Shown here in pieces: positions 16,948-48,506 of a stretch of DNA of 64,000 nucleotides. Made by a program: the position numbers and the translations under genes. The stretch is from Escherichia coli (GTDB lineage: Bacteria > Pseudomonadota > Gammaproteobacteria > Enterobacterales > Enterobacteriaceae). The notes beneath the pieces are model-generated. The model was not told the DNA's origin. It was given only the letters and a program-made list of their open reading frames with translations, and did not search any database. The number at the start of each line of letters is the position of its first letter. Position 1 is the first letter of the stretch. The stretch lies in NCBI RefSeq assembly GCF_044324875.1, contig NZ_CP172185.1. The stretch is one strand, 5' to 3'.

Positions 16948-17289
16948 ATGAAAACCTCAAAAACTGTGGCAAAACTATTATTTGTTGTCGGGGCGCTGGT
17001 TTATCTGCTTGGGCTATGGATCTCATGCCCATTGTTAAGTGGAAAAGGCTATTTTCTTGGCGTGTTAATGACAGCAACTTTTGGTAACTATGCATATCTT
17101 CGCGCAGAAAAACTCGGGCAACTGGATAATTTTTTTATCCATATCTGCCAGTTAGTCGCGTTAATCACTATCGGTCTCTTGTTTATCGGTGTTTTAAACG
17201 CACCTATCAATGCTTATGAAATGGTGATCTACCCTATCGCCTTTTTTGTCTGCTTGTTTGGTCAAATGCGTTTGTTTCGCCCGGCATGA
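16948..17289 (+). CDS. yiaB: YiaA/YiaB family inner-membrane protein
   Basis: 113 aa from MKTSKTVAKLLFVVGALVYLLGLW…; hydrophobic. Confidence 0.8.
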   Translation: MKTSKTVAKLLFVVGALVYLLGLWISCPLLSGKGYFLGVLMTATFGNYAYLRAEKLGQLDNFFIHICQLVALITIGLLFIGVLNAPINAYEMVIYPIAFFVCLFGQMRLFRPA

Positions 17290-18983: not shown

Positions 18984-19292
18984 ATGATGATGAACTCTTT
19001 CTTTCCGGCAATGGCGCTTATGGTGCTTATGGCGCTAGTGGGTTGTTCTACACCGCCACCCGTGCAGAAAGCACAACGGGTAAAGGTTGATCCTCTGCGT
19101 TCGTTGAATATGGAAGCGTTATGCAAGGATCAGGCGGCGAAACGTTATAACACCGGCGAGCAAAAAATCGACGTCACCGCATTTGAACAGTTCCAGGGAA
19201 GCTACGAAATGCGCGGTTATACCTTCCGTAAAGAGCAGTTTGTCTGTTCTTTTGACGCAGATGGCCATTTTTTGCATCTTTCCATGCGTTAA
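18984..19292 (+). CDS. ysaB: small lipoprotein
   Basis: About 100-aa ORF with lipobox (…LVGCSTPPP…). Confidence 0.8.
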   Translation: MMMNSFFPAMALMVLMALVGCSTPPPVQKAQRVKVDPLRSLNMEALCKDQAAKRYNTGEQKIDVTAFEQFQGSYEMRGYTFRKEQFVCSFDADGHFLHLSMR

Positions 19293-19386
19293 GCCCTGCT
19301 TTTTCCCGTTTCGTACTGTATATCTTCCATCCAGCGGGTATACTGATCCCTTCCTTTAAATCCACACGTATCCAGCACGAAATAAT

Positions 19387-20298
19387 ATGCAAAAGTTTGA
19401 TACCAGGACCTTCCAGGGCTTGATCCTGACCTTACAGGATTACTGGGCTCGCCAGGGCTGCACCATTGTTCAACCATTGGACATGGAAGTCGGCGCGGGA
19501 ACCTCTCACCCAATGACCTGTCTGCGCGCGCTGGGGCCAGAACCGATGGCGGCTGCTTATGTTCAGCCTTCTCGTCGCCCGACCGATGGTCGCTACGGCG
19601 AAAACCCCAACCGTTTACAGCACTACTATCAGTTCCAGGTGGTCATTAAGCCATCGCCGGACAATATTCAGGAGCTGTACCTTGGTTCTCTGAAAGAGCT
19701 GGGCATGGACCCGACCATCCACGACATCCGTTTCGTGGAAGATAACTGGGAAAACCCGACGCTGGGTGCCTGGGGGCTGGGCTGGGAAGTGTGGCTGAAC
19801 GGCATGGAAGTGACGCAGTTCACTTACTTCCAGCAGGTTGGTGGTCTGGAGTGTAAACCGGTTACCGGCGAGATCACCTACGGTCTGGAACGTCTGGCAA
19901 TGTACATTCAGGGCGTAGACAGCGTTTACGACCTGGTCTGGAGCGACGGCCCGCTGGGTAAAACCACCTACGGCGACGTGTTCCATCAGAACGAAGTGGA
20001 GCAGTCCACTTACAACTTCGAATACGCGGATGTGGACTTCCTGTTCACCTGCTTTGAGCAGTACGAGAAAGAAGCGCAGCAGCTGCTGGCGCTGGAAAAT
20101 CCGCTGCCGTTGCCAGCCTACGAACGTATTCTGAAAGCCGCCCACAGCTTCAACCTGCTGGATGCGCGTAAAGCCATCTCCGTCACCGAGCGTCAGCGCT
20201 ATATTCTGCGCATTCGCACCCTGACCAAAGCAGTGGCAGAAGCATACTACGCTTCCCGTGAAGCCCTCGGCTTCCCGATGTGCAACAAAGATAAGTAA
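19387..20298 (+). CDS. glyQ: glycine-tRNA ligase alpha subunit
   Basis: 303-aa [42 protein letters not shown]…. Confidence 0.96.
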
Positions 20299-20307
20299 GA
20301 GGCGGCT

Positions 20308-22377
20308 ATGTCTGAGAAAACTTTTCTGGTGGAAATCGGCACTGAAGAGCTGCCACCAAAAGCACTGCGCAGCCTGGCTGAGTCCTTTGCTGCGAACTTT
20401 ACTGCGGAGCTGGATAACGCTGGCCTCGCACACGGCACCGTTCAATGGTTTGCTGCTCCGCGTCGTCTGGCGCTGAAAGTAGCTAACCTGGCGGAAGCGC
20501 AACCGGATCGTGAAATCGAAAAACGCGGCCCGGCGATTGCCCAGGCGTTCGACGCTGAAGGCAAACCGAGCAAAGCGGCAGAAGGCTGGGCGCGTGGTTG
20601 CGGTATTACCGTTGACCAGGCTGAGCGTCTGACTACCGATAAAGGTGAATGGCTGCTGTATCGCGCCCACGTGAAGGGCGAAAGCACCGAAGCACTGCTG
20701 CCGAATATGGTTGCGACTTCGCTGGCGAAACTGCCGATCCCGAAACTGATGCGCTGGGGTGCAAGCGACGTGCACTTCGTGCGTCCGGTGCACACCGTGA
20801 CCCTGCTGCTGGGCGACAAAGTTATTCCGGCTACCATTCTGGGCATTCAGTCCGATCGCGTGATTCGCGGCCACCGCTTTATGGGCGAGCCGGAATTCAC
20901 TATCGACAATGCCGATCAATACCCGGAAATTCTGCGTGAGCGCGGGAAAGTCATCGCCGATTACGAAGAACGTAAGGCGAAGATTAAAGCCGATGCCGAA
21001 GAAGCGGCGCGTAAGATTGGCGGTAACGCTGACTTAAGCGAAAGCCTGTTGGAAGAAGTCGCTTCGCTGGTGGAATGGCCGGTTGTGCTGACCGCAAAAT
21101 TCGAAGAGAAATTCCTCGCGGTGCCGTCTGAAGCGCTGGTTTACACCATGAAAGGTGACCAGAAGTACTTCCCGGTGTATGCGAACGACGGCAAACTGCT
21201 GCCGAACTTTATCTTCGTTGCCAACATCGAATCGAAAGATCCGCAGCAAATTATCTCTGGTAACGAGAAAGTCGTTCGTCCACGTCTGGCGGATGCCGAG
21301 TTCTTCTTCAACACCGACCGTAAAAAACGTCTGGAAGATAACCTGCCGCGCCTGCAAACCGTGCTGTTCCAGCAACAGCTGGGTACGCTGCGTGACAAGA
21401 CTGACCGCATCCAGGCGCTGGCTGGCTGGATTGCTGAACAGATTGGTGCAGACGTTAACCACGCAACCCGTGCGGGCCTGCTGTCTAAGTGTGACCTGAT
21501 GACCAACATGGTCTTCGAGTTCACCGACACCCAGGGCGTTATGGGGATGCACTACGCGCGTCACGATGGCGAAGCGGAAGATGTGGCAGTGGCGCTGAAC
21601 GAGCAGTATCAGCCGCGCTTTGCCGGTGATGACCTGCCGTCTAACCCGATAGCCTGTGCGCTGGCGATTGCTGACAAGATGGACACCCTGGCGGGTATCT
21701 TCGGTATCGGTCAGCATCCAAAAGGCGACAAAGACCCGTTTGCGCTGCGTCGTGCCGCACTTGGCGTGCTGCGTATTATCGTTGAGAAGAACCTCAACCT
21801 TGATCTGCAAACGCTGACCGAAGAAGCAGTGCGTCTGTATGGCGATAAGCTGACTAATGCCAACGTGGTTGATGATGTTATCGACTTTATGCTTGGTCGC
21901 TTCCGCGCCTGGTATCAGGACGAAGGTTACACCGTTGACACCATCCAGGCGGTACTGGCACGTCGTCCGACTCGTCCGGCTGATTTCGATGCCCGAATGA
22001 AAGCGGTATCGCACTTCCGTACCCTGGAAGCAGCTGCAGCACTGGCGGCGGCGAACAAGCGTGTATCTAACATTCTGGCGAAGTCTGATGAAGTGCTGAG
22101 CGATCGCGTGAATGCTTCTACTCTGAAAGAGCCGGAAGAAATTAAACTGGCGATGCAGGTGGTTGTGCTGCGCGATAAACTGGAGCCGTACTTCGCCGAA
22201 GGTCGTTACCAGGACGCGCTGGTCGAACTGGCTGAATTGCGTGAACCGGTTGATGCCTTCTTCGATAAAGTGATGGTCATGGTTGATGACAAAGAATTGC
22301 GAATCAACCGTCTTACCATGCTGGAGAAACTGCGCGAATTATTCCTGCGCGTTGCGGATATTTCGCTGTTACAGTAA
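20308..22377 (+). CDS. glyS: glycine-tRNA ligase beta subunit
   Basis: 689-aa ORF starting 9 bp after gly[21 protein letters not shown]…. Confidence 0.96.
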
Positions 22378-22391
22378 TAACGCCGTTATTA

Positions 22392-22420
22392 AAAAGCCTG
22401 CCATCTGGCAGGCTTTTTTA
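22392..22420 (+). terminator. rho-independent terminator of glyQS
   Basis: aaaaagcctgccatctggcaggcttttttat: GC stem, 4-nt loop, U-run. Confidence 0.8.
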
Positions 22421-22673
22421 TCGCTAAATAATAGAGCAACCTTTAATAATCTTCTGCTGAATAAAGATTGTCTCATATATTAATTTTATGAGATTTTTTT
22501 AGGATTATATCAAGGAGAAGAAACGAACTTATTAAGCTAGAATAGCCACGGGTGCTTGAGACTGTTTGTCTCAGGTATTCACCGAAAGGCAGACAGAGAA
22601 AAGCCCCACCTGACTATAAATCAAAGTGTACTGCACCCATTTTGTTGGACGATGAAATGGAATAGCCCCTGAT

Positions 22674-23195
22674 ATGTCAAAGCCAAAATACCCTTTTGAA
22701 AAGCGCCTTGAAGTCGTGAATCACTACTTCACTACTGATGATGGTTACAGGATCATCTCGGCACGTTTTGGTGTCCCCCGAACCCAGGTCAGGACATGGG
22801 TTGCCCTCTATGAAAAACATGGAGAAAAAGGTTTAATTCCCAAACCTAAAGGTGTTAGTGCTGATCCTGAGTTGCGTATTAAGGTCGTGAAAGCTGTGAT
22901 CGAGCAGCACATGTCCCTTAATCAGGCTGCTGCTCACTTTATGCTTGCTGGTAGTGGTTCTGTAGCCAGGTGGCTGAAGGTTTATGAAGAGCGCGGAGAA
23001 GCTGGTTTACGCGCGCTCAAGATTGGCACCAAAAGAAACATTGCAATATCAGTTGATCCAGAAAAAGCGGCATCAGCATTGGAGCTGTCAAAAGACCGAC
23101 GCATTGAGGATCTTGAAAGGCAAGTTCGATTTCTTGAAACGCGGCTTGTGTATCTAAAAAAGCTGAAAGCCTTAGCTCATCCCACGAAAAAGTGA
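22674..23195 (+). CDS. insJ: IS150 transposase OrfA
   Basis: 173-aa ORF MSKPKYPFEKRLEVVNHYFTTDDGYRIISARFGVPRTQVRTW…, recognised as IS150 InsJ. Confidence 0.92.
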   Translation: MSKPKYPFEKRLEVVNHYFTTDDGYRIISARFGVPRTQVRTWVALYEKHGEKGLIPKPKGVSADPELRIKVVKAVIEQHMSLNQAAAHFMLAGSGSVARWLKVYEERGEAGLRALKIGTKRNIAISVDPEKAASALELSKDRRIEDLERQVRFLETRLVYLKKLKALAHPTKK

Positions 23196-24043
23196 AAGTA
23201 CTCAACGAGCTAAGGCAGTTTTATCCTCTTGATGAGCTTCTCAGGGCTGCGGAGATACCGCGCAGTACGTTTTATTACCATCTAAAGGCTCTCAGCAAGC
23301 CTGACAAGTATGCGGACGTTAAAAAGCGTATTGGTGAGATTTATCATGAGAATAGAGGCCGATACGGATACCGTAGGGTAACGCTGTCTCTTCATCGAGA
23401 AGGGAAACAGATTAACCATAAAGCTGTTCAGCGCCTGATGGGAACCCTCTCACTTAAGGCAGCGATTAAGGTCAAGCGATACCGCTCTTACAGAGGAGAG
23501 GTAGGGCAAACCGCCCCCAATGTTCTCCAAAGAGATTTCAAGGCTACGCGGCCAAACGAGAAGTGGGTTACCGATGTTACTGAATTTGCAGTCAATGGGC
23601 GCAAGCTGTATTTGTCTCCAGTAATAGATCTCTTCAACAACGAAGTTATTTCTTACAGCCTTTCGGAAAGACCAGTGATGAACATGGTCGAGAATATGCT
23701 CGATCAGGCATTCAAAAAGCTTAATCCTCACGAGCATCCTGTTCTGCACTCTGACCAGGGATGGCAGTATCGTATGAGAAGATATCAAAATATCCTTAAA
23801 GAATATGGTATTAAACAAAGCATGTCCAGAAAAGGCAATTGTCTGGATAATGCTGTGGTGGAGTGTTTCTTTGGAACCTTAAAATCGGAGTGTTTTTATC
23901 TTGATGAGTTCAGTAATATAAGCGAACTGAAGGATGCTGTTACGGAATATATTGAATACTACAACAGCAGAAGAATTAGCCTGAAATTAAAAGGTCTGAC
24001 TCCAATTGAATATCGGAATCAGACCTATATGCCTCGTGTTTAA
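23192..24043 (+). CDS. insK: IS150 transposase OrfB (DDE domain; joined to OrfA by -1 frameshift)
   Basis: 283-aa ORF overlapping insJ by 4 bp; …[10 protein letters not shown]…[20 protein letters not shown]… integrase core. Confidence 0.92.
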
Positions 24044-24144
24044 CTGTCCAACTTTTTGGGGTCAGTACAAAGTGAGGCCCCTCTATGCATAGACACCATA
24101 AGGTTAGCCTCTTACTCGTTGGAAATCAACACAGGAGGCTGGGA

Positions 24145-24297
24145 ATGCCGCAGAAATATAGATTACTTTCTTTAATAGTGATTTGTTTCACGCTTTTATT
24201 TTTCACCTGGATGGTAAGAGATTCACTGTGTGAATTGCATATTAAACAGGGAAGTTATGAGCTGGCGGCATTTTTAGCCTGCAATTTGAAAGAGTAA
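24145..24297 (+). CDS. hokA: Hok-family type I toxin (50 aa)
   Basis: MPQKYRLLSLIVICFTLLFFTWMVRDSLCELHIKQGSYELAAFLACNLKE; RBS aggag 6 nt upstream; the right end of IS150 lies about 75 bp upstream. Confidence 0.85.
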   Translation: MPQKYRLLSLIVICFTLLFFTWMVRDSLCELHIKQGSYELAAFLACNLKE

Positions 24298-24305
24298 GAG
24301 TCTTC

Positions 24306-24331
24306 GGCGGGAAGTTATTCCCGCCTTTCTT
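24306..24331 (+). terminator. rho-independent terminator after hokA
   Basis: ggcgggaagttattcccgcc followed by tttctt. Confidence 0.65.
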
Positions 24332-24455
24332 ACGGTGTTGGGTATTCTCAATGCACCCTAATTTATTTCTTTAATGAATGTTTTTTTTAAAAATACGAAT
24401 GGATTTGGCTATTAGATAAGTTTTTAATCGGGAACAGGAATGGTTCGGAGCCTTC

Positions 24456-24827
24456 ATGAATAAACTGCTTTTACTGTTGATAATGCTCTATCAACGACAT
24501 CTTTCTCCTCGCAAAGGATACCGCTGTGCTTACAGTGTGTTGTACCAAACGCAGGGATGTTCGGGAGCAGTCAAAGAGATTATTCAACAGAAAGGTGTTA
24601 TTGCAGGCTGGGGCGAGATACGTCAGCGTTTTGCAGATTGCCGACTTGCGGCACAGACAATCAGGCAGAAGCAACACCTGAACGAGGTAATACGTAAAAA
24701 GAAGAATAATAATTGTGATTGTTCCGGGTGCGATGGTGCGGTCTGTCGTGATTGCGACATTCCGGTGCCGGATCTGGATTGTTCCTGGGACTGTTCTTCT
24801 CTACATATAAAGCGTTTTTTCCAATAA
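24456..24827 (+). CDS. YidD-like (PF01809-type) small protein with a cysteine-rich C-terminal tail, 123 aa
   Basis: ORF with ggag 5 nt before ATG; N-terminal half aligns by eye with E. coli YidD (YQRhLSP..G.rC.Y…GCSgA…GVIaGW…R…C); C-terminal 30 aa carry 7 Cys (CDCSGCDGAVCRDCD…DCSWDC); ends at the cspA terminator hairpin. AT-rich, uses rare codons. Not verified by search. Confidence 0.5.
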   Translation: MNKLLLLLIMLYQRHLSPRKGYRCAYSVLYQTQGCSGAVKEIIQQKGVIAGWGEIRQRFADCRLAAQTIRQKQHLNEVIRKKKNNNCDCSGCDGAVCRDCDIPVPDLDCSWDCSSLHIKRFFQ

Positions 24828-46957: not shown

Positions 46958-47432
46958 AAAGTCCTGTCCAGAAAGAAGTCGGCCTCGCAAAAATGAATAA
47001 ACCCAGTTTCTCTTGCGCAACAGGTGGAGAAGTCGAATACGCAGTATGTAAAAAATGAGGCAACAGATTCACTGGGGAGGTCGCGAGGAGGCGCAATTCT
47101 ACAAAATTGCGCATTTCACTACCAGTCTGGAGTCAGCTCGGATATGAACTGCAACTATTGCAAATAAAGAAATTAAGCTGGAAGGCATCGCGCAATGAGG
47201 AAGATTGCCGGGTGCTGACGGTAAAAAGCAATCGTAAAATCAGCGGCAAGCCGGAAAGGTTCCGGTGAGGCGCAATGTTGCGGGGGCTTAATCCCTGGTG
47301 GCATTGGTTGCTGGAGAGAGAAAACCCCCGCACGTTGCAGGTATGCACCTGACAACACCACGGGGGCCATTCTTGCATCCAAACAATACAAGAATAGCCG
47401 CGAAACGTTGTCATTACAACTCAGGCGGCTAT

Positions 47433-47540
47433 ATGACGCTCGCAGAGCTGGGCATGGCCTTCTGGCATGATTTAGCGGCTCCGGTCATTGCTGGCATTCT
47501 TGCCAGCATGATCGTGAACTGGCTGAATAAGCGGAAGTAA
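47433..47540 (+). CDS. ldrD: Ldr type I toxin peptide (35 aa), copy 1
   Basis: MTLAELGMAFWHDLAAPVIAGILASMIVNWLNKRK; LdrD-type sequence. Confidence 0.8.
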   Translation: MTLAELGMAFWHDLAAPVIAGILASMIVNWLNKRK

Positions 47541-47915
47541 CGTGTCAGACGGGCGTCAGGCTGCCGTAATGGCAATTTGCGCCCGGACCAGGCCGCAGGG
47601 ATAAAACTCTGCGGCCTTTTTCGTAAGAAAAATGCAACGGTTGCAAGCGGATAATATTCTGCTGAATGCACAGCACAGAGTGAAGAAGTGATGGATTTCG
47701 ACGAACAAAAATGGCCGTAGAATCAGCGGCAAGCCGGAAGGGTTCCGGTGAGGCGCAATGTTGCGGGGGCTTAATCCCTGGTGGCATTGGTTGCTGGAGA
47801 GAGAAAACCCCCGCACGTTGCAGGTATGCACCTGACAACACCACGGGGGCCATTCTTGCATCTAGACCATTCAAGAATAGCCGCGAAACGTTGTCATTAC
47901 AACTCAGGCGGCTAT

Positions 47916-48023
47916 ATGACGCTCGCAGAACTGGGCATGGCCTTCTGGCATGATTTAGCGGCTCCGGTCATTGCTGGCATTCTTGCCAGCATGATCGTGA
48001 ACTGGCTGAACAAGCGGAAGTAA
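47916..48023 (+). CDS. Ldr type I toxin peptide (35 aa), copy 2
   Basis: Peptide identical to copy 1, 483 bp downstream. Confidence 0.8.
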   Translation: MTLAELGMAFWHDLAAPVIAGILASMIVNWLNKRK

Positions 48024-48398
48024 CGTGTCAGACGGGCGTCAGGCTGCCGTAATGGCAATTTGCGCCCGGACCAGGCCGCAGAGGTGAAACTCTGCGGCCT
48101 TTTTCGTAAGAAAAATGCAACGGCTGCAAGCGGATAATATTCTGCGGAATGCGCAGCACAGAGTGAAGAAGTGATGGATTTCGGAACAGAAAAACAGTCG
48201 TAGAATCAGCGGCAAGCCGGAAGGGTTCCGGTGAGGCGCAATGTTGCGGGGGCTTAATCCCTGGTGGCATTGGTTGCTGGAGAGAGAAAACCCCCGCACG
48301 TTGCAGGTATTCACCTGACAATATGACGGGGGCCATTCTTGAACCTACACAACTCAAGAATAGCCGCGAAACGTTGTCATTACAACACTGGCGGCTAT

Positions 48399-48506
48399 AT
48401 GACGCTCGCAGAGCTGGGCATGGCCTTCTGGCATGATTTAGCGGCTCCGGTCATTGCTGGCATTCTTGCCAGCATGATCGTGAACTGGCTGAATAAGCGG
48501 AAGTAA
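48399..48506 (+). CDS. Ldr type I toxin peptide (35 aa), copy 3
   Basis: Peptide identical to copy 1 (own translation; not listed in the ORF track because the upstream frame is short). Confidence 0.78.
   Translation: MTLAELGMAFWHDLAAPVIAGILASMIVNWLNKRK

Follow-up and report, generated by a model that had tools for sequence, protein, structure and literature searches.

IS150 in the hokA/sokA locus of Escherichia coli at an insertion site shared with other hok loci

The hok/sok locus (parB) of plasmid R1 carries a Hok-family toxin gene, a mok reading frame, an antisense promoter within the mok region, the tac and fbi elements and a match to the Rfam model RF01794. Each of these features has a counterpart in the chromosomal hokA/sokA type I toxin-antitoxin locus of the window, by which we mean the whole 64,000-nucleotide stretch of Escherichia coli DNA (contig NZ_CP172185.1) that was analyzed here. 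The window locus differs from that of R1 in being chromosomal, in having mokA in frame with hokA and in being physically interrupted by the insertion sequence (IS) IS150. Since it is physically interrupted, a regulatory circuit of the R1 style cannot work there.

Interruptions of this kind have been described before. A passage in PMC2654758 that cites Pedersen and Gerdes (1999) reports the hok loci of K-12 to be inactivated by IS elements, and sokA::IS150 is known from MG1655 and sokE::IS150 from more than 400 isolates (PMC11551753). Four hok/sok homologues lie next to E. coli insertion hotspots, which Durrant et al. read as adaptive (bioRxiv 10.1101/527788). HokA itself is reported to be toxic on overexpression (bioRxiv 10.1101/2025.08.07.668861). 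Site preference is also documented within the IS3 family, where IS1397 and ISKpn1 insert specifically into palindromic units (REP), a specificity attributed to the transposase (PMC1525189).

The window holds a decayed hok/sok locus of an already known kind, real and ordinary. What is added here is an allele distinct from that of K-12, together with a site and an orientation of insertion that are identical across paralogues. In our judgment, the chromosomal hokA/sokA locus has very probably been broken by a simple transposition of IS150, the position of which appears to have been set by a recurrent target.

Division of the hokA/sokA locus by IS150

A complete IS150 of 1443 bp occupies positions 22627..24069 (+ strand). 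Its termini are inverted repeats, beginning with TGTACTGCACCC at the left (IRL, 22627-22650) and ending with GGGGTCAGTACA at the right (IRR, 24046-24069). The length of about 1.4 kb, the imperfect TG...CA terminal repeats and a 3-bp duplication place it with IS150, and it is nearly identical to the reference copy of K-12, with 14 differences over the 1443 bp and 3 amino-acid changes. Both transposase genes are full length. insJ (22674..23195, + strand; 173 amino acids) matches the Pfam helix-turn-helix domain HTH_28 (E=4e-23), and insK (23192..24043, + strand; 283 amino acids) matches the integrase core domain rve (E=3e-29). The arrangement is that of the IS3 family: orfA with a helix-turn-helix, orfB with a DDE integrase core, and a -1 frameshift at the slippery heptamer A AAA AAG, which lies in the orfA frame at 23156-23162 (+ strand).

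The element is bordered by two copies of the triplet AAG, at 22624..22626 on the left and 24070..24072 on the right, which were defined by alignment to empty sites. When both flanks of the window were aligned to the uninterrupted hokA loci of strain MEI003 and of O157:H7, a single AAG was found at the empty site, and nothing else had been gained or lost. One AAG at the empty sites and no other change indicate that IS150 transposed here in a simple event that duplicated 3 bp of the target.

The hokA toxin open reading frame (ORF) lies downstream of the element at 24145..24297 (+ strand), encodes 50 amino acids and is intact. The match of its product to Pfam PF01848, HOK_GEF (E=2.4e-23; 81.9 bits against a cut-off of 22), identifies it as a toxin of the Hok/Gef family. 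Its ATG at 24145 stands 75 nucleotides (nt) past the right end of IS150 and is preceded by an intact ribosome-binding site, AGGAGG, at 24133-24138 (+ strand). Window HokA differs by one residue from the HokA of the uninterrupted O157 locus, and full-length HokA is present in all four relatives compared, three of them bearing the IS (L001, L007 and K-12) and one uninterrupted (O157). The mokA frame (24085..24297, + strand) is likewise intact in the ORF list. It spans 70 codons in frame with hokA, which it overlaps, and has its own ribosome-binding site, GAGG, at 24074-24077 (+ strand) ahead of the mok ATG at 24085. The original prediction of a complete IS150 with an AAG duplication, ending about 75 nt ahead of an intact hokA with its ribosome-binding site, is borne out in full.

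The hokA leader of the window is no longer one contiguous stretch transcribed from its own promoter. RF01794 is named 'sok' but is drawn in the hok sense, from the mRNA 5' end to the hok ATG, and its match is divided by the 1443 bp of IS150. The 5' part of the leader, nt 1-77 with the 5' hairpin, lies at 22550..22626 (+ strand) and corresponds to positions 1 to ~84 of the model. The 3' part, at 24070..24144 (+ strand), corresponds to positions ~85-157, with the match itself at 24070..24147. Taken alone, this right-hand piece scores 37 bits against a gathering score of 59, compared with the 124 bits of the uninterrupted MEI003 hokA, which matches the model end to end. The expectation that no complete leader and sok gene would be found downstream of IS150 therefore held. 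IS150 stands between nt 77 and 78 of a hokA mRNA of ~363 nt, a single nucleotide ahead of the ribosome-binding site of mok.

The predicted -10 hexamer of the hokA promoter, TAGAAT, was assigned by homology to 22538..22543 (+ strand), 6 nt ahead of the mRNA 5' end. The spacing from TAGAAT to the 5' end GGGTGCTTGAG equals that from TATGAT to GGCGCTTGAGG in R1-type plasmid hok/sok. At the 5' end of the mRNA lies the tac element GGGTGCTTGAGA (22550-22561, + strand; 5' sequence GGGUGCUUGAGA). The hokA 3' untranslated region (24306..24358, + strand) contains a hairpin at 24306-24325 and, at 24346-24358, the tac-complementary fbi element TCTCAATGCACCC. An IS-free mRNA of 363 nt was reconstructed by deleting IS150 and one AAG. 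Its predicted fold (-142.5 kcal/mol, z=-7.9) pairs the 5' and 3' ends, tac (GGGUGCUUGAGA) with fbi (UCUCAAUGCACCC). In the window, tac and fbi can no longer share one native transcript.

The antisense gene has also been cut in two. The predicted sokA promoter (24129..24101, - strand) consists of a -35 hexamer TTGATT (reverse complement at 24124-29), a 17-nt spacer and a -10 hexamer TAACCT (reverse complement at 24101-06), and by homology it lies where the annotated sokE and sokB RNAs of K-12 begin, 44-48 nt before their hok ATG. SokA would start at about 24093-24097 (- strand), and its first ~25 nt would run to 24070 and from there into IS150. The remaining ~36 nt, which in the reconstructed SokA fold form the 3' arm of the terminator (GGUGGGGC) and a U-rich tail, lie on the other side of the element at 22626..~22590 (- strand). 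This left-hand remnant is the counterpart of the 35-nt sokA pseudogene annotated beside IS150 in K-12. The reconstructed SokA of ~60-65 nt has a 5' tail, a hairpin and the U-rich tail, with the IS site in the 5' arm of the hairpin. No intact gene for the Sok antisense RNA is present at this locus. With IS150 in place, two groups of elements are physically separated: the promoter of hokA, tac and the SokA 3' half on the left, and mok, hok, fbi, the SokA 5' tail and the predicted promoter of sokA on the right.

These positions suggest how the locus would now behave. IS150 lies within the palindrome from which the terminator hairpin of SokA is formed. Its insertion would leave hokA without its own promoter, transcriptionally orphaned and essentially silent. 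No promoter-like or terminator-like site on the + strand was found by scanning between the insK stop and hokA, and the consensus promoter scan found no outward promoter at the IS150 right end. With no promoter-like site in the interval from the IS to hokA and no terminator on the + strand from insK to mok, read-through from the transposase genes is the only plausible source of a mok-hok RNA. Such RNA would arise only by weak read-through from these co-oriented genes. The sokA promoter that remains attached to mok and hok may in turn give rise to a chimeric antisense RNA of ~105-110 nt that extends into IS150. The right end of the element contains a perfect 15-bp hairpin followed by TTTTAATTT on the - strand (23992..24026), detected both by the terminator scan and in the fold of the chimeric transcript. 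This hairpin and U-run form a candidate terminator for transcripts that enter IS150 from the sokA promoter, and the chimeric RNA could stop there (24026..23992). Its complementarity to any read-through transcript would be complete. A silent locus is the most likely outcome.

The K-12 allele and the frequency of interrupted hokA loci

The closest described allele is hokA/sokA::IS150 of K-12 (b4455, b4647, b4614), which resembles that of the window in its location between glyS and cspA, in the presence of IS150, in the broken leader and sokA, and in the intact hokA ORF. The K-12 allele (NC_000913 3720633..3722075) nevertheless has neither the junctions nor the orientation of the window allele, a difference that the original prediction does not mention. 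In K-12, IS150 is inserted in the opposite orientation and without a duplication, and ~41 bp have been lost, including the mok ribosome-binding site, its ATG and the sokA -10 hexamer, whereas the window has no deletion and retains both mok and the sokA promoter. The K-12 element ends 32 nt from the hokA ATG as compared to 75 nt in the window. In the K-12 annotation mokA is a truncated pseudogene, unlike the intact mokA frame of the window. On the glyS side, the K-12 junction lies only 2 nt from the insertion point of the window. IS150 insertion with an adjacent deletion and without a duplication made up ~17% of IS movement events (14/83, all IS150) in long-term evolution lines (bioRxiv 10.1101/2024.06.02.596822), and the K-12 structure fits this documented class. 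This is important to note because transfer of the K-12 annotation to the window would mislead: mokA and the sokA promoter are intact there and IS150 is the other way round. Studies of HokA/Sok expression should not equate the two alleles.

Allele frequencies were counted over 5426 complete E. coli genomes, a set that does not include the window's own strain. An uninterrupted hokA leader, with the empty site in one piece, was found in ~2786 of the 5426. The K-12-type arrangement accounted for ~1640 and the window-type insertion, including a variant with an AAGTG junction, for ~901, so that the window-type allele is carried by roughly every sixth complete E. coli genome. Taken together, roughly 47% of complete E. 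coli genomes have a hokA leader broken by IS150. A few genomes have more complex rearrangements. Strain WB61 (NZ_CP020025, locus L004, 1735-3560) represents a third state of hokA, in which the segment with the hokA promoter, IS150 and the 5' part of hokA is inverted and a partial inverted Hok fragment lies beside glyS; the record contains N bases, and an assembly error is possible.

The window copy of IS150 can also be distinguished from others at the same site. In strain 50579417 (NZ_CP033884) the IS150 at this position is identical to that of K-12, and the window copy differs from it. The best identity of the hokA locus to complete E. coli genomes was 98.3%, and the 39-mer spanning the left junction of the window was absent from the GTDB species representatives. 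Upstream of the locus, none of 5425 complete E. coli genomes matches glyQ-glyS (19000-22377) at more than 98.6% identity, which indicates that the lineage of the window is not represented among those 5425.

Recurrence of the insertion site and rival explanations

The same position is used in other hok loci. The sokE::IS150 insertion, natural insertions in hokB (trg side) and hokC (nhaA side), and the evolved hokC/nhaA insertion all have IS150 in the orientation seen in the window, 72-75 nt before the hok ATG. The junctions, written with slashes between flank, duplication and element, read ...AATCA/AAG/IS/AAG/T GAGGCC for hokA of the window, ...CATCA/ACC/IS/ACC/C GAGGCC for hokC (EJN001), ...TATC/AAC/IS/AAC/C GAGGCC for hokB (EH10-18-47) and ...ATCAA/CCC/IS/CCC/T GGGGC for hokE (AR_0077, BL21). 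In all four loci a single nucleotide separates the end of the duplication from G(A/G)GGC, the right end of the IS faces hok at the distance given above, and, in hokB, hokC and hokE as in hokA, the Sok gene is split roughly in half. The loci differ in the duplicated triplet, which is CCC in hokE, AAC in hokB and ACC in hokC as opposed to AAG in hokA. They also differ in frequency, with roughly 5-10% of genomes interrupted at the paralogue loci as compared to 17% plus 30% at hokA. Within each paralogue locus, the break point is common to nearly all of the interrupted genomes sampled across the ranking; the exceptions (a single one each for hokE and hokC, three for hokB) are the lowest-ranked matches, which start much further into the query.

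Experimental evolution has produced insertions at this site as well. In evolved lines of E. coli B, IS150 was recovered three independent times at REL606 position 16,972 in hokC (PMC5419217), which maps to the same ACC of hokC, assuming that the published coordinate denotes the first duplicated base. In a fourth evolved line the insertion is at 16,989, the other foot of the same palindrome. The published positions of the mokB and hokE insertions of REL4536 (PMC5419217) fell outside those two loci in REL606, and only the hokC positions were used here. At the hokE site of BL21(DE3) (NC_012892, locus L015, 225-2201), IS150 carries a nested IS1 and is bordered on the left by sequence other than the hokE leader, a sign of a secondary deletion or an IS-mediated rearrangement.

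Metagenomes were scanned with the 24-nt IS150 right end, which gave 120 loci with 107 distinct flanks, and Hok ORFs were detected with a small hidden Markov model (HMM). G(A/G)GG(C/T) stands exactly at +5 in 13 of the 107 flanks, as against ~0.4 expected if all bases were equally likely. Eight flanks, R1-type plasmid hok included, lead into a same-strand Hok ORF, with HMM E-values of 1e-18 or better, and five further flanks are hok leaders truncated by other elements. In the plasmid hok homologues the target-site duplication is CCCA (R1-type) or ACA, followed by C GAGGC. Outside hok, three flanks of bona fide IS150 carry the motif without any recognized hok feature, right after the duplication in L020 and L129 and one nucleotide further in L124.

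The scan also returned the exact 24-nt right end GTCCAACTTTYTGGGGTCAGTACA in many metagenome contigs of low G+C content (loci L019-L138; locus G+C 23-34%). In both of the low-G+C contigs inspected (L042, L078), the adjoining IS is ~66% identical to IS150. These distant IS relatives form a family with a shared terminal repeat.

The comparative data suggest that IS150 repeatedly targets one position in the Sok terminator stem, consisting of the 3-bp duplication, one nucleotide and G(A/G)GGC, in one orientation. We lean, by a modest degree, toward a general form of this rule, in which IS150 and relatives with the same right-end repeat would be site- and orientation-specific and would prefer the Sok terminator palindrome of chromosomal and plasmid hok/sok loci. 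The target would comprise a 3-4 bp duplication, one nucleotide and G(A/G)GGC, with the transposase reading toward hok, and the decay of E. coli hok/sok loci would be due mainly to target choice and not to selection. The recurrence across hokA, hokB, hokC, hokE and plasmid hok makes this a testable target rule for IS150, and it would provide a non-adaptive explanation for the published hotspots. IS1397 and ISKpn1 offer a precedent, being elements of the same family with a strong preference for one position in a short GC-stemmed palindrome. Their target is REP, whereas that of IS150 would be the Sok terminator palindrome or G(A/G)GGC, a preference deduced from comparative data only. The possibility that the target acts as a surrogate IS end was considered and set aside as unconvincing speculation; the resemblance to the IS150 inverted repeats is confined to the pyrimidine-G after the duplication and the G-run.

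Several points weigh against a broken, silent locus positioned by target choice. The consensus promoter scan called neither the hokA promoter nor the sokA promoter, and both were assigned by homology and spacing. Predicted folds gave no clear difference in the accessibility of the mok and hok starts among the native, the 3'-processed and the IS-read-through RNA. Three elements of this reading, namely a silenced hokA, read-through out of IS150 and a chimeric Sok-IS RNA, are deduced from sequence. With regard to the target, bona fide IS150 contributes only nine distinct flanks to the metagenome sample, a small number, of which six are hok/sok sites. Most of the 120 matches are distant IS relatives in low-G+C DNA that share just the 24-nt end, and pooled base frequencies are therefore not usable as a target logo for IS150. 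Lastly, natural genomes alone cannot fully separate target preference from selection.

Selection is the best surviving alternative, although we consider it unlikely to have set the position. It would hold that IS150 inserts more or less anywhere and that the only insertions to survive and spread are those which disconnect the toxin from its promoter and can thereby tolerate a broken antitoxin, since losing a useless or costly locus pays. The authors of the studies concerned read insertions in hok/sok as adaptive inactivation (PMC5419217; bioRxiv 10.1101/527788), and the parallel insertions in independent evolved lines, as well as the near half of complete genomes with an IS150-broken hokA leader, are in line with this. 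However, any site in the ~85-nt stretch from the mRNA start to mok would suffice for disconnection, and yet one nucleotide and one orientation recur in hokA, hokB, hokC, hokE and the plasmid homologues. The motif in L020, L129 and L124, where no hok feature is recognized, also speaks against selection as the cause. The identity of site and orientation across paralogues favors target choice over selection alone, and selection may still aid the spread of such alleles.

It is considerably more doubtful that the locus has been rewired into a working pair coupled to IS150 transcription, in which read-through from the IS150 promoter would yield a mok-hok mRNA without the inhibitory 5' elements, held in check by the chimeric Sok-IS150 RNA. 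IS150 is indeed co-oriented with hokA, and no + strand terminator separates insK from mok; the promoter of sokA, the 5' tail of SokA, the start of mok, the ORF of hokA and fbi have all survived intact; the hairpin and U-run within the IS could end a chimeric antisense RNA after ~105-110 nt; and HokA is full length in all four relatives read. The scheme is purely inferential, however, and the IS150 promoter is weak and autoregulated. The mok ribosome-binding site is paired in the predicted fold of the read-through RNA, with an unpaired probability of 0.01. The K-12-type allele, which has neither the mok start nor the sokA -10 hexamer, is even commoner than the window type. In addition, a passage in bioRxiv 10.1101/2025.08.07.668861, citing Pedersen and Gerdes, states that uninterrupted chromosomal hokA gave no post-segregational killing.

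The least credible arrangement, in which the whole regulatory module (promoter, mok, Sok-complementary region and sok) lies upstream of IS150 and a bare hokA ORF downstream, as the original prediction had it, is right as far as the promoter of hokA, tac and leader nt 1-77 (~22538..22626) are concerned. For the rest it is contradicted by the sequence itself, since IS150 is followed by the mok start codon with its ribosome-binding site, the predicted promoter and ~25-nt 5' tail of SokA, and the second half of the RF01794 match.

Neighboring features

An ORF of 25 codons (24274-24351, - strand) is antisense to the 3' end of hokA. At its position a 23-amino-acid hypothetical protein is annotated in relatives, and the small protein YsaE in K-12. 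Further downstream, an ORF of 123 amino acids (24456-24827, + strand) has a Cys-rich tail and a weak YidD-like match (PF01809, 26.4 bits against a cut-off of 27). It belongs to a part of the hokA-cspA interval in which the sequences of the window and of MEI003 depart from those of K-12 and O157:H7. Strain 50579417 has the same annotated gene at that place, and the RefSeq label in relatives is YidD.

Upstream of the locus, the glyS terminator region (22385-22451, - strand) gave a sub-threshold match to the small RNA STnc370, with 46.3 bits against a gathering score of 54. The match overlaps a bidirectional-looking glyS terminator hairpin and is probably just that terminator.

Elsewhere in the window, four tandem matches to the rdlD antitoxin RNA (RF01813, 78-90 bits) lie at 47319-48833 (- strand), ~483 bp apart. 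They imply a putative four-copy ldr/rdl type I toxin-antitoxin array at 47319-48833, at a chromosomal position where K-12 presumably has a single ldrD/rdlD.

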